Below are positions 1-9,674 of a DNA stretch of 9,674 bases, in pieces (within the stretch, counting starts at the first letter, position 1; every line of letters starts with the position of its first letter). A program made the position numbers and the translations under genes. Source of the stretch: a virus (taxonomy: Duplodnaviria > Heunggongvirae > Uroviricota > Caudoviricetes); the IMG/VR virus record IMGVR_UViG_2548876938_000003, positions 1-9,674 of that record. One strand, given 5' to 3'. The notes beneath the pieces were generated by a model that worked only from the letters and a program-made list of their open reading frames with translations, was not told the origin of the DNA and did not search any database.

Positions 1-287
1 CTGATGACATACATGCCGTAAATCATGCCGGTGCCATCCAGCAACGGCCACGCCCGGCCTTCATCTGCCATCAGCCTGAGCGTGGTCATCGTCAGCTTTC
101 CGCCGGTCAGTTCGGGATAAAGCACACCGGCAAGCGTCATGTTTTCCTCGCCAACACCGAGAAACTGGTAGGCATCCCGTTTACCGATACGGGAATTTGA
201 CGGCCAGCGATAATCTGATTCACGCTGCATGGTCTGGTGTGGCAGCGTCTGGCGCATAAAAACAAACATACCTAACGCGAGCATCAT
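1..287 (-). CDS. U: Tail protein gpU (P2 U-like), first 95 codons; 3' end lies beyond the window start
   Basis: Minus-strand tandem ATG ATG at 287-282, preceded by a strong SD (AAGGAGGTGA) that overlaps the gpT stop codon. Translation reads MMLALGMFVFMRQTLPHQTMQRESDYRWPSNSRIGK... for the ~25 codons translated by hand, matching my recollection of P2 gpU; the remainder to the window edge is assumed open. Absent from the ORF track because there is no in-window stop. Confidence 0.85.
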   Translation of the reverse strand, partial: MMLALGMFVFMRQTLPHQTMQRESDYRWPSNSRIGKRDAYQFLGVGEENMTLAGVLYPELTGGKLTMTTLRLMADEGRAWPLLDGTGMIYGMYVI

Positions 288-301
288 TTTTAGTCACCTC
301 C

Positions 302-2749
302 TTAACCGTCATGCATCATGCTGGCACGGGCGCGCGCACGTTTATCCCGCTCGTATTTTTCGAGCGCATCCTGTAACTGGCGGTCGAGCTGTGTCCCCGG
401 CGCAGTACCACCCGTCAGGCTGATGTGATATTCGTTTTTACTCTGGTCTACATAAGAGCGGCCAGCAGGTGCAGTGACCGGCTGATAAGCCTGATAACCT
501 GCATAAGAGCTGGTCGCCGGAATATAACCACCGCTGCCATACGTGGCGGCTTGAGTTCTGGCGGCGGTCTGGTCAAGTGTGTCTGACTCTTTGTTGATAA
601 CACCGAGTTTTTCCAGTACCCAGTCAATACCACTGCGCAGTTTGTTGAACGCATTAAGCGGCAGCATCAGCGCGTCAGCCAGTGCCTGCCCGAACATGAC
701 GCCCGTGTCACGGCAACGGTTCAGGGTGTCCTGGGTGGCTTTGACCGGGGCAATCAGGTTTTTAAACCACTGCCACGCGGCCTGTAACTTTTCGCCCAGC
801 CAGTCAAACACCGGCTTCAGTGGCGTGAACAGTTCCCCCACCGGCGCAAATGCCGCTTTCAGCCCTTCAACCACACCGCCAAAGAATGCGCTGACAGGCT
901 CCCAGTATTTACGGATAAGCAACGCCCCGGCGACAATGGCGGCCACCACGGCCACAACCGGCCAGCTAATCGCCCCGATGGCCGTCATAACAGCACTGCT
1001 AACCGTCGTGAAGATTGCCCCCATTGCGCCTGCTGCCGCGATAATGGCATTGATGCCGGTGATAACCGGCCAGGCTACAAGACCAATGGCACCGATGATG
1101 CCAATAAGCGCCAGCGCGCCACCGACAATGAGGCCGATGGTTGACGCCAGTGATTTGTTTTTCTGGATCCAGCCGTCGAGTTTTAACACATACTTTGTGG
1201 CCGTCTGCGTGAGCTTACGCAGTGCGCCTTCCTGCTGGTCAAACAGGTCAGTCCCCACCGCCTCATAAGCGGACTGAAACTCCTTAAAGTCACCGCCGAG
1301 GTTATCCTGCATGATTTTAACCAGCTCTTCCGTTTTACCGTCCGAGGCTTTCAGCGTGGCGGTCAGCGTATCCAGTTTTCCGCTTGCTGCCGCTGCCAGT
1401 AAAACGTTCGCTGATTTCAGGGCTTCCTCACCAAAAATGGTTTTAAGGTATTCCCCCTTCTGAGACGTTCCCAGCTTATGCTTATCAAAGCTGGCCTGAA
1501 TCTCTTTCAGAATGGTGAACAACGGACGCATATTTCCCTTTTTGTCCGAGGTTTTAACGCCAAGCTCTTTGAGTGCATCCCATGCTTTTCCAGTCGGTGC
1601 CTGTAATCGGGTGACAACGGCACTGCTACCCGTACCCGCCATTGACCCCCTGATGTTATTGTCATGCAGCACACCGGTCATGGCCGCTGCCTGCTCAAGA
1701 CTTACACCTGCCGTCCTCGCAACCGGGCCGAGGTAAGTCAGTGCATCACTGAGTCCCTGAAAATCAGCCGCCGACTTATTCATCGTTGCCGACAACACGT
1801 CGCCCACATGGCTGACATCATCATTTGACAGTTGAAAGGATGCCTTAGTCCCCAGCAACAATTGCGCGTTTTCTTCCATCGACCGCTGGTTTGCCAGTGC
1901 CATATTCAGTGTGACCGGCGTTGCTGCCTGAATAGCCGCAGCATCTCCACCCGCTTTCGCAATGATAATCTGTGCACCGGCTGCATCATCTGCCGAGGCT
2001 GCGGTATTGTCGCCGAGCTGGCGCGCCTGCTTGCGGAGTGCGGTCATTTCGGCGGAGTCTTTTGCCACTCCTAGCACGGCCTGCAATTCTGAGTTTTTCT
2101 GCGCAAACTCATAACCGGGCATCAGCAGCTTAACACCGGCCATCGTTCCCGCAGCAGCAATCCCCACACCGGCAGCGCCCACTGAGGCCATATTTCCTGC
2201 CAGTTCCTTTCCGGCCTGATAACGCTGTTTTACTGCGTTAAGTTTTGCCTGTTGTGCACTGACACGCGCCAGTGCGTCGCGCTGACGGTTAAGCTGTGCG
2301 GTGGTTTCACTGATACGGTTTTTCAGCCCCTGCTCATCATGTGCAAGATTGCGGGTATTAATTCCCACAGCGGCCAGTTCCCGCTGCTGGCGTTTAACGG
2401 AATCCGTCAGGCGGTTATATTTCGCCTGTAAGTCCTCCGCCGCACGCTTTGCGGATTCCAGCACTTTCGCCTGAGCACGGGTCGGACGTTCGGTGTTTTT
2501 AAACTGTGTGGCAAGGGCTTCGGCTTCCTGCCGAGCCTTTTCAAGTGCATGACCAGTCACGGCGAGCTGTGCACTGGTCTTGCGAAATCCCTCAATACGG
2601 GATGCCTGACCGTTCAGCTCGCGCAGTGATTTTTGTGTTTCCCGGATATCCCCCGACAGCGACTTACTCGCTGTGCGGATGGATTTAAACGGGCGGGATG
2701 CCTGGTCAACAGCCCTGAGCAATACCTGTAATTTTACATTGTTACTCAT
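302..2749 (-). CDS. T: Tail tape measure protein gpT (815 aa)
   Basis: Complete 815-aa ORF. The N-terminal half is rich in A/Q/R/L/E (coiled-coil character). A long central Gly/Ala/Ile-rich hydrophobic block (LASTIGLIVGGALALIGIIGAIGLVAWPVITGINAIIAAAGAMGAIF...) is typical of tape measure proteins. It lies immediately downstream of the E/E' frameshift chaperone pair; the ATG at 2749-2747 sits 3 nt downstream of the E' stop (2742-2744 lies inside T codons 2-3). Length equals the P2 gpT length I recall. Confidence 0.93.
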   Translation of the reverse strand: MSNNVKLQVLLRAVDQASRPFKSIRTASKSLSGDIRETQKSLRELNGQASRIEGFRKTSAQLAVTGHALEKARQEAEALATQFKNTERPTRAQAKVLESAKRAAEDLQAKYNRLTDSVKRQQRELAAVGINTRNLAHDEQGLKNRISETTAQLNRQRDALARVSAQQAKLNAVKQRYQAGKELAGNMASVGAAGVGIAAAGTMAGVKLLMPGYEFAQKNSELQAVLGVAKDSAEMTALRKQARQLGDNTAASADDAAGAQIIIAKAGGDAAAIQAATPVTLNMALANQRSMEENAQLLLGTKASFQLSNDDVSHVGDVLSATMNKSAADFQGLSDALTYLGPVARTAGVSLEQAAAMTGVLHDNNIRGSMAGTGSSAVVTRLQAPTGKAWDALKELGVKTSDKKGNMRPLFTILKEIQASFDKHKLGTSQKGEYLKTIFGEEALKSANVLLAAAASGKLDTLTATLKASDGKTEELVKIMQDNLGGDFKEFQSAYEAVGTDLFDQQEGALRKLTQTATKYVLKLDGWIQKNKSLASTIGLIVGGALALIGIIGAIGLVAWPVITGINAIIAAAGAMGAIFTTVSSAVMTAIGAISWPVVAVVAAIVAGALLIRKYWEPVSAFFGGVVEGLKAAFAPVGELFTPLKPVFDWLGEKLQAAWQWFKNLIAPVKATQDTLNRCRDTGVMFGQALADALMLPLNAFNKLRSGIDWVLEKLGVINKESDTLDQTAARTQAATYGSGGYIPATSSYAGYQAYQPVTAPAGRSYVDQSKNEYHISLTGGTAPGTQLDRQLQDALEKYERDKRARARASMMHDG

Positions 2750-3169
2750 TCGTGTTTCCGCTTCGCCGGAGCGCCTTTTCGCGCCATGTGATGAGTTCGG
2801 TCAGGCTCATGGGATACAGTTCTGATGGCGGCCAGTGAAATATCACTGCCACATCCGCCATCAGGTCATCGACCGAGAGATTTTTCGGGAACGTCACTGC
2901 ACCGAGTTCGGCGACAAAAAACCGACCACCTTACCGGCCAGCGCCACAAGGTCAGGCAGTTCCAGCGCGGCGACTTCCTGCTCGGTCAGCATCGGTGCCG
3001 TCATGCGCGGCAGCACTTTAATCAGTGCATCGACTTCGGAGTTTGCAACCGCAGCCAGACTGACACCGCGCAGCGTCCCGGCGTTAGGTTTCATCAGCGT
3101 GACCTGTTCGATAACCTGCTCACCACGTTTGACCGGATTGTCCAGGGTAATGACATTTTCTTTGTTCAT
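2742..3169 (-). CDS. E+E': Tail assembly chaperone gpE+E' (142 aa), made by programmed -1 ribosomal frameshift at 2915-2921
   Basis: Hand translation of the -1 frame after the slippery site gives VAELGAVTFPKNLSVDDLMADVAVIFHWPPSELYPMSLTELITWREKALRRSGNTNE, then TAA at 2744-2742, which overlaps T codons 2-3 (ATGAGTAAC). 85 + 57 = 142 aa, the length I recall for P2 E+E'. Confidence 0.8.
2894..3169 (-). CDS. E: Tail assembly chaperone gpE (91 aa, zero-frame product)
   Basis: ORF MNKENVITLDNPVKRGEQVIEQ...KVVGFLSPNSVQ, ATG at 3169-3167, TGA at 2896-2894. Position between tail tube and tape measure genes. Contains the slippery heptamer 7 codons before its stop. Confidence 0.9.
   Translation of the reverse strand: MNKENVITLDNPVKRGEQVIEQVTLMKPNAGTLRGVSLAAVANSEVDALIKVLPRMTAPMLTEQEVAALELPDLVALAGKVVGFLSPNSVQ
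2915..2921 (-). promoter_or_regulatory. -1 programmed frameshift slippery heptamer T_TTT_TTG (mRNA sense)
   Basis: Plus strand reads caaaaaa at 2915-2921; the reverse complement is TTTTTTG in X_XXY_YYZ register with the E frame (GGT TTT TTG). This is the conserved tail-chaperone frameshift of P2-like and lambda-like (G/GT) phages. Confidence 0.8.
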
Positions 3170-3197
3170 GGTTTTCTCACTTCTGAATCGGGGTTAA

Positions 3198-3218
3198 CCG
3201 GTCAGCCTGGCTGACCGG
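3198..3218 (-). other. Perfect 9-bp GC-rich stem-loop (ccggtcagc-ctg-gctgaccgg) in the FII-E spacer
   Basis: Inverted repeat read directly from the sequence, 8 nt downstream of the FII stop and about 28 nt upstream of the E start codon. No U-tract follows on the transcribed strand, so it is not a canonical intrinsic terminator. Confidence 0.5.
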
Positions 3219-3225
3219 ATGAAAA

Positions 3226-3744
3226 TCACAGGCCGATATTGCGGCGGTGTTGCTCCAGCCGGTCGACGCCGTTCACCTTCTCAATCATGTTGATGGTGTC
3301 GATTTCGACCAGCTCCTTACCGTCCATCGTCAGCCGGAAATAGGTGCAGACCACGGAGATTTTCGACTCGGTGTCTTCTCCCTGTTTCCCCTCGCCGGTG
3401 TCGATTTCTTTCTGACGTCCACGCATGACCACCTCGACGGCCACCGTTTCGCCGGTATCGTCGCGCTGGTAAGAGCCTGCAAAACGAATCGGCACGGCAT
3501 CCACACCGGTTGCGGCGTAAAGCTCCCAGATAACCGAATCCGGGAAGCCCCCGAGCGACCACTCCATTGACAGCGCATCGTCATCAAGGCCGAGGTCTAC
3601 CGGTGCGCTGCCGTTCATCCCCGCACCGCGATAGTTTTCGAGCTTACGGGTCAGTTTTGGCAGCGTGACGGACTTTGCAACGCCCTGATAGCTGTAGCCG
3701 TTCAGAAAGACGTTCATTAACTTGAGTTTGCGCGGCATTGCCAT
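3226..3744 (-). CDS. FII: Tail tube protein gpFII (172 aa)
   Basis: Complete ORF MAMPRKLKLMNVFLNGYSYQGVAKSV...; ATG at 3744-3742 preceded by SD AAGGAG, which overlaps the FI stop. Length and sequence match the P2 tail tube protein as I recall it. Confidence 0.93.
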   Translation of the reverse strand: MAMPRKLKLMNVFLNGYSYQGVAKSVTLPKLTRKLENYRGAGMNGSAPVDLGLDDDALSMEWSLGGFPDSVIWELYAATGVDAVPIRFAGSYQRDDTGETVAVEVVMRGRQKEIDTGEGKQGEDTESKISVVCTYFRLTMDGKELVEIDTINMIEKVNGVDRLEQHRRNIGL

Positions 3745-3756
3745 CGGTCAGGCTCC

Positions 3757-4566
3757 TTAATTGCTGTTAACCGAAGTGACCAGATTTGCCAGGTATTTAT
3801 CGGTAATACGCTGGCGCAGGGTCAGGTTTTCGAGAGGAGGCACCGGGGTATAGTCGTAGTCGATATACAGTTTTCCGGCCTTGAGGGTTTCCGCATCGTT
3901 GGATTCTTCGCTGAACCAGCAGGTCGCATCCACGATATAGCCGTTTGTTTTCAGCTCACGGAATTTGGCATTGATGCCGTCAACGATGTCGCGAATCAGC
4001 GTTGCGGTGATGGGCTTGTCCACTGCCCACATGTGCGCCTCAGCCATCGTGTCGGCCAGCACCTGCGCGGTGCGGGTGTAGTTTTCAAAGAGGAACAGCG
4101 GGTCATCGGAGCAGGTACGGTTACCCCAGAAGCGGAAACCGTCGCGGCGAATCAGCGTAGTGACGCCTGACTCGTTAAGCAGGTCAGCATCGGTGCCGGA
4201 CTCCTGCAAATCCCAGAAGACGGATGCGCTGATGCCGGTAACACCGTTCACCCCGACATTGGACAGCGTTTTATGCCAGCCCTGCTCCTGGTCGATTTTA
4301 GCGCGCAGACCCAGCGCACGGGCGGTGGCATACGCGGTGGCGGTGGTACTGGTGACCGTATCCCATGCGAGGAAATCCGGCCAGATGACCATCAGCTCAC
4401 GCTGGCTGAAATTCTGACGGTAGGCTTTCACCTCGGAAATGGTTTTACAGCCCCATGCGCTGATATACCCGAAAGCACGCAGCTTCTGACAGACTGATGC
4501 CAGTGCAACAGCCACCTCTTTGGTATCCAGTCCCGGCACGCCGAGAATACGCGGTTTAACACCGGT
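3757..4566 (-). pseudogene. FI: Tail sheath protein gpFI, 5'-truncated remnant (C-terminal ~269 codons only)
   Basis: Sheath-like sequence starts abruptly at ...[26 protein letters not shown]... and runs to ...[12 protein letters not shown] with TAA at 3759-3757. The ORF-track start at 4614 is a GTG, and its first 15 residues ([15 protein letters not shown]) are the gpV coding sequence read out of frame. P2 sheath is about 396 aa as I recall, so roughly 125-130 N-terminal codons are missing. Confidence 0.85.
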
Positions 4567-4834
4567 TATCGCCGGAATAAATCCCCGGCAGAACGAACGC
4601 CGTGTCGAGTTCACCGCCCACGGCCAGAATCAGCACCTGTTCCCCCACGGAAGGTGCCCACCATGTGCGCGAACGTCCGGCGCGATGGGTCAGCCACTGA
4701 AGCCAGTCGGTGCACATGCCGCCGGTCTGCACACGGCAGCGACCGGCGTTAAGGTCGGTTTCGACGATAATGCCGGTGCGGATCATGTTGCGCAGTGCGC
4801 GCGCGAGTTCCTGAATATTTGCGAGAGTGTTCAT
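4556..4834 (-). pseudogene. V: Baseplate spike/assembly protein gpV, N-terminal 89 codons followed by an out-of-frame RC-stop
   Basis: [90 protein letters not shown] matches the gpV N-terminus. The frame then reads R-C-stop (TAA at 4558-4556), which lies inside the sheath-derived sequence. Full-length gpV is about 211 aa as I recall. Confidence 0.85.
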
Positions 4835-4845
4835 AACGGGAAGGA

Positions 4846-4869
4846 TGCCGCCGGGTCATACCGGCGGCA
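4846..4869 (-). other. 9-bp stem / 6-nt loop hairpin (tgccgccgg-gtcata-ccggcggca) between the S stop and V start
   Basis: Inverted repeat read directly from the sequence, 12 nt upstream of the V ATG (4834). Not followed by a U-run. Sits where the late promoter PV and V translation-initiation signals are expected. Confidence 0.4.
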
Positions 4870-4900
4870 ATGTGACGATGAGGTGTCGGGAATGGCACAA

Positions 4901-5323
4901 CTAACGGTCGAGGTGAGCCAGGATAATCTCTTCAATCATCTGCACATCCTCACCGGTAAAGCCGAGCAGAGGACGCGCCGGATAATCAATTTTCTTACCG
5001 TCTTTCCGGTTTTCTTCCGACAGACCGAACTGATGCACACTGGCGATTTTCGGCGACTTCCCGCCGTAAAATTCCATTGATGCCTGCTCCGGGCTGGCGC
5101 GGATATGCAAAAAACGACTGGTAATAAGTTTCGCAAACATTTTTCGCTTAACGCGACCGGTCTTTTTTCTGGCGCTCTGCTGCTGGCGTGGTGCGTAGGG
5201 TGTGCCGTCCGGGGCTTTCTGTGCCATCACCCGGCGCTGCTGACTCTGCCGCAGACGTTTCGCCAGTTCGGCGCTCAGTCGCCGACGCCCTGACGGTGAC
5301 AGCGATTCAATAAGTCCGGCCAG
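4901..5323 (-). pseudogene. S: gpS-like tail completion / virion morphogenesis protein, 5'-truncated and lacking its native start
   Basis: The frame reads ...RLAGLIESLSPSGRRRLSAELAKRLRQSQQRRVMAQKAPDGTPYAPRQQQSARKKTGRVKRKMFAKLITSRFLHIRASPEQASMEFYGGKSPKIASVHQFGLSEENRKDGKKIDYPARPLLGFTGEDVQMIEEIILAHLDR with stop at 4903-4901. Assignment is from motif memory (HQFGL, YPARPLLGF) and position immediately before V. Protein-like sequence in this frame continues upstream into the 3' end of the M ORF. The only in-frame starts are GTG at 5230-5228 and ATG at 5227-5225 (the ORF-track 109-aa call); there is a stop at 5371-5369. Confidence 0.6.
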
Positions 5324-5913
5324 TCGAGCTGTGTCGCACGTTGCAGGTGAGCCAGCGCACCGGCGGCATCACCAGCGTCACGCAGAAACAGACCGGTGAT
5401 TTTGTGCAGCTTTGCGCGCACTTCATCAGGCATGTCTGCCGTGGCGGTCAGTGCAAGGGTCTCCGTCAGCAGGCGGGTATCCACAGACTCACCGGCAGCG
5501 TGGGCGCGCATGGCCGCGAGCGCCACCTCCTCGGTGAACATGTACGGCGGGGTGCGGCGGTGTTTACCCGGCATGGTCAGACCGTACTTCAGGGCATAAC
5601 GGGCAATCTCCAGCGCACCGGCAATATCGCCGGTATCCAGACGCCACAGCATGACCGTCATCAGAATGTCATCCTGTGCACCTTTGCCCTGCTCCAGCAC
5701 GCCGTTCACCCACGGCAACCAGAACGGCAGCAGTTCGCGTTTTTTCGCGGCCTTCAGCTCTTTTGAATAAATCGCTTTCAGTGTGCGCTGGTCTGCGGCC
5801 AGCTTGACCAGCATCTGCTCATAGACAGTTGCATGTCGCAGCGGGGCGGCGTCCCGCTGCGCGGTCATCGCTGCCGAGACCCGCATCATGTGGCGCTGTG
5901 CGGGACTCGTCAT
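5275..5913 (-). CDS. M: Terminase small (endonuclease) subunit gpM, apparently 3'-truncated (212 codons; aberrant C-terminus WPDLLNRCHRQGVGD)
   Basis: MTSPAQRHMMRVSAAMTAQRDAAPLRHATVYEQ... with ATG at 5913-5911, 3 nt downstream of the N stop, and SD GGGAG. After ...HLQRATQLD the frame reads through sequence that is coherent in the S frame, and stops at 5277-5275. P2 gpM is about 247 aa as I recall. Confidence 0.8.
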   Translation of the reverse strand: MTSPAQRHMMRVSAAMTAQRDAAPLRHATVYEQMLVKLAADQRTLKAIYSKELKAAKKRELLPFWLPWVNGVLEQGKGAQDDILMTVMLWRLDTGDIAGALEIARYALKYGLTMPGKHRRTPPYMFTEEVALAAMRAHAAGESVDTRLLTETLALTATADMPDEVRAKLHKITGLFLRDAGDAAGALAHLQRATQLDWPDLLNRCHRQGVGD

Positions 5914-5916
5914 CGG

Positions 5917-6990
5917 TTACGCTCCCGGCTCTGCGGTCACTTTAGTCGGTGTGGAGAAGTCACCGACCTTAATTTTTTCCACCAGGCAACCGGCGGCGTA
6001 GTCTTCCACCACGTAATCAATGTTCATTGACTCGTAGTTCTCCACGCGGTCGAGTTTCGGGTTTTCCTCAATCACGCGGCGATGGCTGTCATCCATGTAG
6101 TAGATGGACAGGTTTTCCAGCTTCGTGATGAGCATCGCATCCGCCGGGAAGTACGGGACGCGTACCGCTGGCAGGTTGCCGATGCGTTTCTGGCTGATGA
6201 TGACGTCAGCGGCCAGCATTTCGCTGTTGTCCTGCTCCTTGTTGACGATGGGGAAATACTTGTCCGCCAGTAGCTGACGCCCCACAATCACCACAAGGTC
6301 AGGGTCTTCCTGATACCACGGCTCAATCAGGTTGTTGGTCGCATCCATCACCAGTGCGTCAAGGCTGGCATAATCACCGCCCTTACCCACGCGGATGACC
6401 TCAGAGGTCGTGTGCCCTTCCTCGTCAGTGACCTTGCTCATCACGCGCGCCGGGGCTTCATTGCGGTATTTCTGCAGCCAGCCGACCGCCACATCCTGCA
6501 ACATCGGATTACTGCTGCGGTCAGAGGTTTCGGCACGCCTCACGCCGTTAAAACCGGCCATGATGAAATCAAGGGACTGGCGTTTGATAATGGCGTTACG
6601 GACACGGAGCTGGAAATCCTGATAACGCGCCCACAGGTCCAGCGTTTTGTAGCGGATATAAAAATCGAAGTTAATCTGGTCGCATTCGTACTTGTTTGAC
6701 GCCAGCTTCGAGAAGTCCTTTGGCTGACGCTCGGTGCCACCGGCGGTGTCGGTGGTGCTGGCGATGGAGCCGGTGACACCGATGCCAATTTTTTCCCCTT
6801 TCATTTCGCTGACCGGCACAATGTTGATGCGGGTCAGAAAGTCAGAGGACTCCTGCATGGTGTTCATCAGGGTCTGGGTGACCGACGGTTCAACGGTGAA
6901 TTTTTTCGACACATCACCGGCGTCGATGCCGTTCAGTTCGGCAACACGGGACAGGTAGGCATTAAATTTAAAGCGGGTTTCCTGGCGCAT
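5917..6990 (-). CDS. N: Major capsid protein precursor gpN (357 aa)
   Basis: Complete ORF MRQETRFKFNAYLSRVAELNGIDAGDVSKKFTVEPSV... preceded by AGGA SD; TAA at 5919-5917. Canonical position between scaffold O and terminase subunit M. Length equals P2 gpN as recalled. Confidence 0.93.
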   Translation of the reverse strand: MRQETRFKFNAYLSRVAELNGIDAGDVSKKFTVEPSVTQTLMNTMQESSDFLTRINIVPVSEMKGEKIGIGVTGSIASTTDTAGGTERQPKDFSKLASNKYECDQINFDFYIRYKTLDLWARYQDFQLRVRNAIIKRQSLDFIMAGFNGVRRAETSDRSSNPMLQDVAVGWLQKYRNEAPARVMSKVTDEEGHTTSEVIRVGKGGDYASLDALVMDATNNLIEPWYQEDPDLVVIVGRQLLADKYFPIVNKEQDNSEMLAADVIISQKRIGNLPAVRVPYFPADAMLITKLENLSIYYMDDSHRRVIEENPKLDRVENYESMNIDYVVEDYAAGCLVEKIKVGDFSTPTKVTAEPGA

Positions 6991-7048
6991 AGTTTTTCCT
7001 GAAATTAAGGGTTAATCGTGAAGGTTTTCCCGGACTGACTGACGCCGG

Positions 7049-7903
7049 TCAGCAGTTCGTCATCAGGGCGTCACCGCCACCGCCGGTGGCTTTGCTGCGG
7101 CGCTGCTGGGTCAGACTTTCGGTGTGGTCGAGACTGTTTTTCAGGCGGGTGAATGCCTGACTGGTTTCATCCGCCCTGTCAGTCACATCCTGCTTAAGTG
7201 CCGAAAAGGCGGTTTCCATCTCAGCAAGGCGCTGCTCAGTGGCGCTCAGTTTTTCCTGCACATGCTCAGCGACAGCGGTCACCGCTTCATGCACGTCATT
7301 CAGACGGGCGTCATCGCTGGCCTGTTTGCGGCCAAAAATGGATTTCACCTTTTCGGTCAGGGCGGTGAACACGGTTTCAGGCAGGTCTTCAAATTCCAGC
7401 TCAACAGGCGTTGCCACTGAAATCAGGTTTTCAGGGCTTAATTTGAAGCGGTTCAGAGGGTTGTGTTTTGCCGTGCGGCAGAATTCCAGGTATTCCGTGC
7501 CGAGGCTTGCCGGGTCATCGGTGACGGCCAGCCCCACCAGATAACACTTGCCGGTGTTGGCAAAGTTCGGCTGAATTTCCATTGAGGTATAGACCTTCTG
7601 CGCGGCCTTGTTCATCGCGATAAGGTCATCGGTCGGGGTGATTTTCGCAAACAGCGCCCATTTGCCTTTCAGCGCCGAATCGTCGTCAATCTTTTCGGCC
7701 TTCAGTTCGGCCACATCGCCATAACGTTTAAAAATACCGTCAGGCAGGATGCCGCGCAGATGTTCCAGGTTAATGCGGCAACCATAGACACGCGGGTCAA
7801 AGGTTTCGGCCATTTCCTGAATATCCTGCGCACTGATGACACGCCCGTCACAGGTGTCACCCTCAACGCCGATACGAAAGAATTTTGAGACTTTTTTTGC
7901 CAT
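7049..7903 (-). CDS. O: Capsid scaffolding protein gpO (284 aa)
   Basis: MAKKVSKFFRIGVEGDTCDGRVISAQDIQEMAETFDPRVYG... with coiled-coil-like C-terminal half. True start taken as the ATG at 7903-7901 (SD AGGA 6 nt upstream), not the ORF-track upstream ATG at 7969. Divergent from P, as in P2. Confidence 0.9.
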   Translation of the reverse strand: MAKKVSKFFRIGVEGDTCDGRVISAQDIQEMAETFDPRVYGCRINLEHLRGILPDGIFKRYGDVAELKAEKIDDDSALKGKWALFAKITPTDDLIAMNKAAQKVYTSMEIQPNFANTGKCYLVGLAVTDDPASLGTEYLEFCRTAKHNPLNRFKLSPENLISVATPVELEFEDLPETVFTALTEKVKSIFGRKQASDDARLNDVHEAVTAVAEHVQEKLSATEQRLAEMETAFSALKQDVTDRADETSQAFTRLKNSLDHTESLTQQRRSKATGGGGDALMTNC

Positions 7904-8076
7904 TGTCAGGAGTCCTGAATAGTGATTAGAGGAGTCACATGTCGGCATCAGTTTCCCGACGATGCGCATCCTCCGCCATCAGTCCCGGATGGCTTATCAC
8001 TGACACAACAGCACCTTAGCGAATCGCGGGGCGCGACTCAGTAGCCTTGCCGTGTATTCATCACGGCGAGGTATTC
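7904..8076. promoter_or_regulatory. Divergent intergenic region between O and P; presumed late promoters PO and PP plus 5' leaders
   Basis: 173-bp non-coding spacer between divergently oriented first genes of two late operons. Contains the near-palindrome tcagga-g-tcctga (7906-7918) overlapping the O SD, and a GAGG SD for P at 8067-8070. I could not find an exact TGT-N12-ACA Ogr/Delta-type activator motif, so promoter placement is inferred from gene arrangement only. Confidence 0.45.
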
Positions 8077-9674
8077 ATGACCATCACCACAGACACCACT
8101 CTTTTACACGACCCGCGTCGTCAGGCGGCGCTGCTGTACTGGCAGGGATTTTCCGTGCCGCAGATTGCCGCCATGTTGCAGATGAAACGCCCGACGGTGC
8201 AGAGCTGGAAACAGCGCGACGGCTGGGACAGCGTTGCCCCCATCAGCCGTGTCGAAATGAGTCTGGAAGCGCGGCTGACCCAGCTCATCATCAAACCGCA
8301 GAAAACCGGCGGTGACTTCAAGGAAATTGACCTGCTCGGACGCCAGATTGAACGACTGGCACGGGTCAACCGTTACAGTCAGACCGGCAACGAGGCAGAC
8401 CTTAATCCGAACGTCGCTAACCGCAACAAAGGCGGGCGTCGCAAACCGAAAAAGAATTTTTTCAGTGACGGGGCCATCGAAAAGCTGGAGCAGATTTTCT
8501 TTGAGCAGTCTTTCGAGTATCAGTTGCACTGGTATCGCGCCGGGCTTGAGCACCGCATCCGCGATATCCTGAAATCCCGCCAGATTGGCGCGACGTTTTA
8601 TTTTTCCCGCGAGGCGCTGCTGCGCGCCCTGAAAACCGGTCATAACCAGATTTTTCTGTCGGCCAGTAAAACGCAGGCGTATGTGTTCCGCGAATACATC
8701 ATCGCCTTTGCCCGGCTGGTTGACGTTGACCTGACCGGTGACCCGATTGTCCTGGGCAATAACGGCGCAAAACTGATTTTTCTCGGCACCAACTCCAACA
8801 CCGCGCAGAGCCATAACGGCGACCTGTACGTCGATGAGATTTTCTGGATCCCGAATTTTCAGGTACTGCGTAAGGTGGCATCAGGTATGGCCTCACAGAG
8901 TCACCTGCGATCGACCTATTTCTCCACTCCGTCCACGCTGGCGCACGACGCCTACCCGTTCTGGTCGGGTGAACTGTTCAACCGGGGACGCGCCAGCGCC
9001 GCCGAACGCGTGGAAATCGACGTCAGTCATAACGCCCTTGCCGGTGGGCTTCTCTGTGCAGACGGCCAGTGGCGGCAGATTGTCACCATTGAGGACGCCC
9101 TGAAAGGTGGCTGCACGCTGTTCGACATTGAACAGCTCAAACGCGAAAACAGCGCCGACGATTTTAAAAACCTGTTCATGTGTGAATTTGTTGACGACAA
9201 GGCGTCAGTGTTCCCGTTCGAGGAGCTGCAACGCTGCATGGTCGACACGCTGGAAGAATGGGAAGACTATGCACCCTTTGCCGCCAATCCGTTCGGCTCA
9301 CGTCCGGTATGGATTGGTTACGACCCGTCACACCGTGGCGACAGCGCCGGATGCGTGGTGCTGGCACCGCCGGTGGTGGCCGGTGGCAAATTCAGAATAC
9401 TTGAGCGTCACCAGTGGAAAGGCATGGACTTTGCCACTCAGGCTGAATCCATCCGCAAACTCACCGAAAAATATAACGTCGAATACATCGGTATTGATGC
9501 CACCGGCCTCGGTGTCGGCGTGTTCCAGCTCGTGCGCTCGTTCTATCCCGCCGCGCGCGACATCCGCTACACGCCGGAAATGAAAACCGCAATGGTGCTC
9601 AAGGCAAAAGACGTTATCCGCCGTGGCTGTCTGGAATATGACGTCAGCGCCACCGACATCACCAGCTCGTTTAT
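8077..9674 (+). CDS. P: Terminase large (ATPase/nuclease) subunit gpP, first 532 codons; 3' end beyond the window
   Basis: ATG at 8077 with GAGG SD; hand translation MTITTDTTLLHDPRRQAALLYWQGFSVPQIAAMLQMKRPTVQSWKQRDGW... is open to the window end. Walker-B-like LYVDEIFWIP and a nuclease-domain-like VWIGYDPSHRGDSAGCVVLA are present. Absent from the ORF track because there is no in-window stop. Confidence 0.93.
   Translation, partial: MTITTDTTLLHDPRRQAALLYWQGFSVPQIAAMLQMKRPTVQSWKQRDGWDSVAPISRVEMSLEARLTQLIIKPQKTGGDFKEIDLLGRQIERLARVNRYSQTGNEADLNPNVANRNKGGRRKPKKNFFSDGAIEKLEQIFFEQSFEYQLHWYRAGLEHRIRDILKSRQIGATFYFSREALLRALKTGHNQIFLSASKTQAYVFREYIIAFARLVDVDLTGDPIVLGNNGAKLIFLGTNSNTAQSHNGDLYVDEIFWIPNFQVLRKVASGMASQSHLRSTYFSTPSTLAHDAYPFWSGELFNRGRASAAERVEIDVSHNALAGGLLCADGQWRQIVTIEDALKGGCTLFDIEQLKRENSADDFKNLFMCEFVDDKASVFPFEELQRCMVDTLEEWEDYAPFAANPFGSRPVWIGYDPSHRGDSAGCVVLAPPVVAGGKFRILERHQWKGMDFATQAESIRKLTEKYNVEYIGIDATGLGVGVFQLVRSFYPAARDIRYTPEMKTAMVLKAKDVIRRGCLEYDVSATDITSSF

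Follow-up and report, generated by a model that had tools for sequence, protein, structure and literature searches.

In bacteriophage P2, the late genes are arranged in the operons P-Q, O-N-M-L-X-lysis-R-S, V-W-J-I-H-G and FI-FII-E-T-U-D, each of which is served by an Ogr-dependent promoter. P2, its relative Wphi and the Peduovirus prophages of E. coli resemble the locus described here in gene order, in nucleotide sequence (97-99% identity), in the lengths of the encoded proteins and in the TTTTTTG site of E/E'. Unlike these phages, the locus misses 8.3 kb of essential late genes in two blocks, and four of its genes are truncated. The family also comprises the ETEC1701, JNE23-001 and GPEC60-33-648 prophages which, like the locus, carry large lesions in the tail or lysis region beside intact neighbours. 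Moreover, we take the cryptic P2 remnant of E. coli K-12, consisting of ogrK and a partial D, and the defective P2-like prophage of E. coli B to be further deletion-inactivated members of the P2 family and thus comparable to the locus, the K-12 remnant being presumably far more eroded. The R-type tailocins, bacteriocins derived from P2 tails, share the genes for a P2-type tube, a tape measure and the E/E' chaperones with the locus; on the contrary, they keep sheath, baseplate, fibre and lysis genes and possess no capsid genes, whereas the locus shows the reverse. In general, deletion-driven degeneration of prophages has been described in reviews (PMC6379469), and genes of lytic function were found to be preferentially lost in incomplete prophages (PMC7744054; also PMC6379469).

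The stretch of DNA analysed here (9,674 bp, hereafter the window) constitutes the entire draft contig AIAO01000078.1 of GCA_000446325.2 in reverse orientation. With a probability of about 0.88, we consider it to derive from an ordinary P2-type prophage that was made defective by two recent short-repeat deletions and whose intact genes are not kept for a purpose.

Identity and gene content of the late region

Judged by homology, the window corresponds to the late genes of a P2-like (Peduovirus) prophage. BLAST searches of phage records and 5,426 complete E. coli genomes revealed that every base of the window is homologous to P2-like late genes, with relatives overall reaching 97-99% nucleotide identity. 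In every intact relative, the match is divided into three colinear pieces spread over approximately 18 kb; for instance, the prophage of E. coli CFS3246 covers the whole window in three colinear pieces at 97.9% identity, and phage Wphi matches the head part at 98.3%. The closest intact relatives attain 99.2% identity in the head part and 98.4% in the tail part; with these as the best matches, a near-identical intact parent was not found, so that no direct ancestor dates the deletions. The host of the prophage is probably E. coli, given the 97-99% identity to prophages of this species and the names of cluster members.

Along the minus strand follow, in this order, U (cut), T, E/E', FII, a C-terminal portion of FI, an N-terminal portion of V, S lacking its start, M lacking its end, N and O, while the plus strand carries P (cut). 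Gene names were taken from annotated relatives, and the Pfam matches agree with them. Together with the high nucleotide identity, the succession of P followed by O, N, M ... FI, FII, E, E', T and U is that of a Peduovirus late region. Scans for tRNA genes and Rfam families returned none in the window, and a repeat scan of the same sequence yielded only short matches of chance size.

Both ends of the contig fall inside genes (P and U), with phage homology reaching the last base, and the corresponding Logan contig of another sequencing run breaks elsewhere, namely at window positions 4189 and 9033. This combination suggests that a repeat in the same genome, possibly a second P2-like prophage, lies behind the contig breaks. 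As a separate observation, relatives encoding an identical gpT are integrated at the yegQ-ogrK site, which we take to be the site of the K-12 remnant; the window element's own site lies beyond the contig, as do Q, D, ogr, int, C, cox and the att sites, if the element possesses them.

Among the tail genes, U (1-287, minus strand) retains the first 95 of its 159 codons before the contig end cuts the rest; it features the PF06995 domain and is colinear with U of the intact prophage L001, which serves as reference throughout. The tape measure gene T (302-2749, minus strand) is intact and encodes 815 amino acids, corresponding in length to T of Wphi with 804 of 815 residues identical. Gene E and its -1 frameshift product E+E' occupy positions 2742-3169 of the minus strand (E at 2894-3169, 91 amino acids; E' frame at 2742-2897), as read directly from the sequence. 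The putative slip site TTTTTTG at 2915-2921 (minus strand) is the one expected of the E/E' chaperone pair of Peduovirus, and a -1 shift at this site in silico yields an E+E' protein of 142 amino acids, which differs from that of Wphi in a single residue. The tail tube gene FII (3226-3744, minus strand; PF04985) is likewise intact, and all 172 residues of its product are identical to Wphi FII.

The head genes are preserved to a similar extent. The major capsid protein gpN (5917-6990, minus strand; PF05125) is intact with 357 amino acids, 352 of which are shared with Wphi N, and the capsid scaffold/protease gpO (7049-7903, minus strand; PF05929) is intact with 284 amino acids and 283 residues in common with its Wphi counterpart. 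The large terminase gene P (8077-9674, plus strand) comprises the first 532 of 590 codons without any stop, the remainder being cut by the contig end; 531 of these 532 residues are those of Wphi P, and the Terminase_6C domain ends at profile position 121 of 155, precisely where the contig does. Taken together, T, E, FII, N and O match Wphi in length exactly and reach 98.6-100% amino-acid identity; internal stops are absent, and their start contexts (22 upstream bases) are the same as in L001. The original prediction, which had listed P, O, N, FII, E/E' and T as full length with intact starts and an intact frameshift signal, thus stands for O, N, FII, E/E' and T but not for P, of which 532 of 590 codons are present up to the contig end.

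The gene content also bears on other phage-derived entities. With its truncated sheath gene, its baseplate, fibre and lysis genes lost to deletion and two capsid genes (N and O) in place, the locus does not fit an R-type tailocin, and this reading was rejected; readings as a GTA-like element or a capsid-forming island were likewise rejected on gene content.

The two deletions and the remnants left behind

In comparison with intact relatives, the window is short of 8.3 kb in two internal blocks, one of 5.15 kb and the other of 3.19 kb. Deletion 1 (5.15 kb, L001 positions 7572-12720) extends from FI, which lost its first ~125 codons and the DNA upstream of them, across the fibre-assembly and invertible region and the genes H, I, J and W into V, whose last ~123 codons are gone. 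In deletion 2 (3.19 kb, L001 positions 13485-16676), S was deprived of its first 9 codons and M of its last ~50, and R, lysC, lysB, lysA, K, Y, X and L disappeared altogether. The junctions were delineated by setting the window against the two parental sequences as found in up to 10 relatives. Junction 1 (4563-4571) coincides with the imperfect direct repeat CGGTTA(C/T)CG, in which 8 of 9 bases agree, and junction 2 (5321-5326) with the imperfect direct repeat CAG(C/T)CG, in which 5 of 6 bases agree; the base at 5320, adjoining junction 2, is found on neither parental side. Short direct repeats at the crossover are the usual footprint of RecA-independent illegitimate recombination, and the repeats observed here point to slipped-strand or microhomology-mediated recombination as the probable mechanism of deletion. 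On this account, two independent illegitimate recombinations between very short imperfect direct repeats would have inactivated the prophage. Through deletion 1, the sheath gene FI, reduced to its C-terminal two-thirds, became attached to the beginning of V at the expense of the baseplate, tail-fibre and fibre-assembly genes; deletion 2 connected S to the initial ~196 codons of M, with the loss of L, X, the lysis cassette (Y, K, lysA, lysB, lysC) and R.

A short contig that is phage-homologous to its last base and ends inside P and U, in a genome for which a repeat or a second P2-like prophage is suggested, might give the impression of deletions where an assembler had merely mis-joined pieces within or between P2-like prophage copies. 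The chance that this applies is very slight, as the overlaps at the junctions measure 5-9 bases and are hence far below the overlap or k-mer of any assembler. In addition, the Logan assembly of the separate run SRR21142975 (contig L004) covers window positions 4189-9033, contains both junctions and is 100% identical over 4,845 bases. Given overlaps far too short for a mis-join and the perfect match of an independent assembly, both deletions are real and not an assembler artefact.

Four genes were left broken by the two deletions, hereafter referred to as FI', V', S' and M'. The sheath remnant FI' (3757-4571, minus strand) comprises the C-terminal ~270 codons, while the start codon, the N-terminal ~125 codons and its own upstream region are gone; it aligns to positions 6757-7571 of L001, where the sheath gene extends over 6757-7947, and hence lacks the N-terminal third; its Pfam sheath domains start at profile position 11. 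The baseplate spike remnant V' (4556-4834, minus strand) is an open reading frame of 92 amino acids composed of ~88 of 211 native codons and 4 out-of-frame codons running into FI; it keeps its native start context and, of its domains, the PF04717 OB domain only. The tail-completion remnant S' (4901-5326, minus strand) is devoid of the native ATG and the first 9 codons, so that a GTG at 5230 becomes the first canonical start in frame; the recorded gene call comprises 140 amino acids and begins at a CTG within junction 2. Finally, the small terminase remnant M' (5275-5913, minus strand) retains ~196 of 247 native codons, followed by 16 out-of-frame residues from S DNA. Its Pfam domain PF05944 (residues 35-164) is wholly kept, as in full-length M, so that M' may retain some terminase function.

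Neither indels nor premature stops were detected anywhere in the retained DNA, including 2 kb of remnants. The original view, which saw in the locus a P2-family prophage rendered defective by recent deletion, is borne out by colinearity, two missing blocks and retained DNA free of indels and stops. The accompanying statement that adjacent genes had been cleanly excised instead of accumulating point lesions is correct with respect to the point lesions but overlooked the four truncated genes that remain.

Predicted operon layout and products

Two intergenic regions with presumed promoters have survived. The S-V intergenic region (4835-4900, minus strand) is unchanged, with zero mismatches to L001 over 4572-4915; we assume that it precedes the V operon as in P2, its promoter role being assigned from the P2 map. 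The divergent O-P intergenic region (7904-8076) is likewise retained, with zero mismatches to L001 over 7784-8365, and its promoter role is again assumed from the P2 map. An Ogr-box pattern of the form TGT-N12-ACA has 0 matches in the window, and scans of the window for sigma-70 promoters and terminators returned fewer sites than shuffled controls, the one terminator-like match being the hairpin and T-run at the E/E' slip site.

Based on this layout, deletion 2 would shorten the O operon to O-N-M'-'S, and deletion 1, by dropping the F promoter region, would have the V promoter and V' precede 'FI-FII-E-T-U. FII, E, T and U thus presumably lie downstream of the V-operon promoter now. If late transcription were switched on, the element would produce at most scaffold, capsid protein, large terminase, tube protein, chaperones and tape measure, while baseplates, sheaths, fibres, completed heads and lysis proteins would be out of reach. 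Compared with the complete essential late-gene set of a functional P2-like prophage, L, X, Y, K, lysABC, R, W, J, I, H and G are absent and M, S, V and FI are truncated. Hence, the element would be unable to form particles or to lyse the cell. Nor would it act as a stand-alone helper of a P4-type satellite, since the sheath, baseplate, fibre and lysis genes as well as L, R and S are missing and M is damaged; with regard to the functions that P4 draws from a helper, those of tail and lysis and L are lacking, and M is altered. Genes of a satellite were not found in the window.

It is conceivable that two modules, one for head and terminase (P, O, N, M') and one for tube and tape measure (FII, E/E', T, U), owe their retention to continued activity. 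Their partner in the same genome might be a satellite or a second P2-like prophage, the modules furnishing, for example, hybrid phages or alternative capsid and tail parts, in which case M' would be active. We regard this as very improbable, and the element most likely has no current function.

Substitution pattern, distribution and decay

The original prediction also raised the possibility that the structural genes, described as showing purifying-looking conservation, had been retained for a purpose. Substitutions relative to L001 allow this to be examined, because the four remnants can be set against the intact genes. As had been supposed, dN/dS of the retained genes is low: the intact genes differ from L001 by 138 synonymous and 23 non-synonymous changes, and the value for gpT is 0.058. 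The remnants, however, are equally low, with 32 synonymous and 6 non-synonymous changes, of which FI' alone accounts for 12 and 0, respectively. The same holds true for the 26 substitutions that are private to the window when compared with a panel of ten related loci. Of these, 16 reside in intact genes (13 synonymous, 3 non-synonymous), 9 in remnants (7 synonymous, 2 non-synonymous) and 1 in intergenic DNA. For remnants drifting since the deletion, at least about two thirds of all changes would be expected to be non-synonymous, and 7 synonymous changes out of 9 correspond to a binomial P of about 0.01 under neutrality (our estimate, assuming a synonymous fraction of 0.33). Since remnants without working proteins are as conserved as the intact genes, private branch included, the signal predates the deletions; the private remnant changes indicate that even the private branch is mostly made up of changes from the functional period.

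According to these counts, the functional phage passed on the purifying-looking conservation, compared with which the deletions are young. In terms of mechanism, P, O, N, FII, E/E', T and U would have survived intact because too little time elapsed for point lesions to arise, and their low dN/dS would be a legacy of the functional period. A separate observation touches the same point of inherited constraint: the gpT protein of the window is an exact match to that of the intact prophages L005-L008, despite 71 differing sites relative to L005 in the DNA segment from T to FI'.

In principle, the modules P, O, N and FII, E, T, U might nonetheless be kept by selection, either for use by a P4-like satellite or as a recombination reservoir for incoming P2-like phages. 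The absence of lesions from the retained genes, their native start contexts, the presence of the frameshift site and the unchanged regions upstream of O/P and V are all compatible with such a role, as is marker rescue from defective P2-like prophages, which is known in E. coli B (P2 Hy dis). Still, the non-functional remnants are as conserved as the intact genes (32:6 versus 138:23), and fixation at the level of a clade is absent (0 of 5,426 complete E. coli genomes). The gene set alone cannot supply satellite heads, tails or lysis, and any homologous DNA can recombine without being selected for it. We therefore consider selective retention highly unlikely, and the proposal of a purpose is not sustained.

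The distribution of the deletions was assessed in several collections. With a 1.2-kb query spanning both junctions, neither junction was found in any of the 5,426 complete E. coli genomes; junction-specific 23- and 24-mers were absent from a collection of species-representative genomes and from metagenome contigs, and the pattern of junction 1, the only one searched there, was absent from a viral contig collection. Of the M' and V' fusion proteins, exact copies are recorded for this assembly and one Logan run only. The supposition that the double deletion might be fixed in a clade hence found no support, with 0 of 5,426 genomes and one other, identical carrier, and vertical inheritance of the defective state across a clade is not apparent from this distribution. 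Conversely, confinement to a single assembly, which the original prediction had taken to speak against it, applies very nearly but not strictly, the sole other carrier being SRR21142975 with its 100% identical contig. As both are identical over 4.8 kb, with zero post-deletion divergence, SRR21142975 may represent the same strain or a clonal relative. Regarding domestication, the retained genes are no more constrained than the inactivated ones, and the carriers amount to two identical contigs that have not diverged since the deletions.

Roughly 1,700 complete E. coli genomes are positive for P2-like prophages, and other members of the family bear different lesions. In ETEC1701, a deletion with other breakpoints took the 5' part of the sheath gene through V, in JNE23-001 the lost stretch runs from L' through the lysis genes, and in GPEC60-33-648 ISEc12 is inserted in the sheath gene. 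The breakpoints of all three differ, and neither junction of the window occurs in any of them. These differing lesions show that decay of P2-like prophages by large lesions beside intact genes is commonplace, which accords with the literature on degenerating prophages (PMC6379469) and on their loss of lytic genes (PMC7744054).

Another possibility is that the deletions themselves were selected, in that a prophage deprived of its lysis cassette and tail assembly is disarmed ("grounded"), with the structural genes as neutral passengers. Deletion 2 takes out the complete Y-K-lysABC cassette, the independent JNE23-001 deletion also spans L' through the lysis genes, and ETEC1701 separately lost the 5' part of the sheath gene through V; moreover, preferential loss of lytic genes from incomplete prophages has been reported (PMC7744054, PMC6379469). 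Nevertheless, three cases amount to an anecdote, the deletion lineage is extremely rare and does not indicate a selective sweep, and random deletions filtered by viability alone predict the same pattern. Selected disarmament is thus a tentative option that we consider rather doubtful, though clearly less remote than retention of the modules by selection.

Recent inactivation of an ordinary prophage by two short-repeat deletions remains the preferred reading. The window represents routine recent decay in a rare lineage. If the retained modules were truly selected, the prophage would be a case of partial domestication, but no finding points there, and the case itself matters little beyond annotation. 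What it does illustrate is that intact reading frames and low dN/dS in a defective prophage are not to be equated with current selection unless its broken neighbours serve as a control.

Tape measure protein and tail chaperone signal

The tape measure protein gpT, encoded at 302-2749, comprises 815 aa and is identical to the gpT of L005-L008, four intact P2-like prophages residing at the yegQ-ogrK site. In comparison with L005, the 4.6-kb segment extending from T to the truncated sheath gene FI', which includes T itself, exhibits 71 nucleotide differences, and those located within T all leave the protein unchanged. The invariance of gpT despite the differing sites in this segment indicates a strong constraint on the protein across the phage population. 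An 8-pair hairpin, GCTGGCCGGTAAGGTGGTCGGT (2921-2942, minus strand), which was flagged as terminator-like, is situated just upstream of the slip site of the tail chaperone pair E/E' and terminates exactly at TTTTTTG.

Remnants at the second deletion junction

The truncated small terminase M' (5275-5913, minus strand) retains the complete Pfam domain PF05944 (residues 35-164) and is devoid only of its final ~50 residues, in place of which it carries 16 out-of-frame residues derived from S DNA; M' is assumed to be non-functional. Adjoining the same junction, position 5320 is occupied by a lineage-private C, which matches neither the T of the S side nor the A of the M side and may have arisen as a side effect of the repair that generated the deletion. 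The deposited gene call for the S remnant (140 aa) begins at a CTG codon (5321-5323, minus strand) inside the junction, while the first canonical in-frame start, a GTG at 5230, yields 109 aa; the 140-aa call on record is probably an artefact.

Contig ends

The window corresponds to a complete draft contig, whose ends (1 and 9674) fall within gpU and gpP, respectively; phage homology extends through the final base, IS sequence is absent from both ends, and the independently assembled Logan contig L004 breaks elsewhere, namely at 4189 and 9033. The differing breaks in two assemblies, together with phage homology up to IS-free contig ends, hint that the genome contains a further P2-like prophage or some other repeat.

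The deleted regions in related prophages

At the loci L005-L008, L011 and L012, the closest intact relatives encode, between the sheath and tail-fibre genes, a serine recombinase (Resolvase/HTH_7) alongside fibre-assembly genes in opposite orientation, an arrangement that constitutes an invertible tail-fibre cassette. This cassette occupies the position of the first deletion. In L012, the recombinase gene is frameshifted.

Independent lesions in the same two regions, i.e. sheath-to-V and L-to-lysis cassette, were found in the P2-like prophages of ETEC1701 (L009, which also features a rearrangement where a replication-endonuclease fragment adjoins lysA), JNE23-001 (L010) and GPEC60-33-648 (L011), with the sheath gene disrupted by ISEc12 in one case. 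The repeated loss of tail and lysis regions in P2-like prophages might be non-random.
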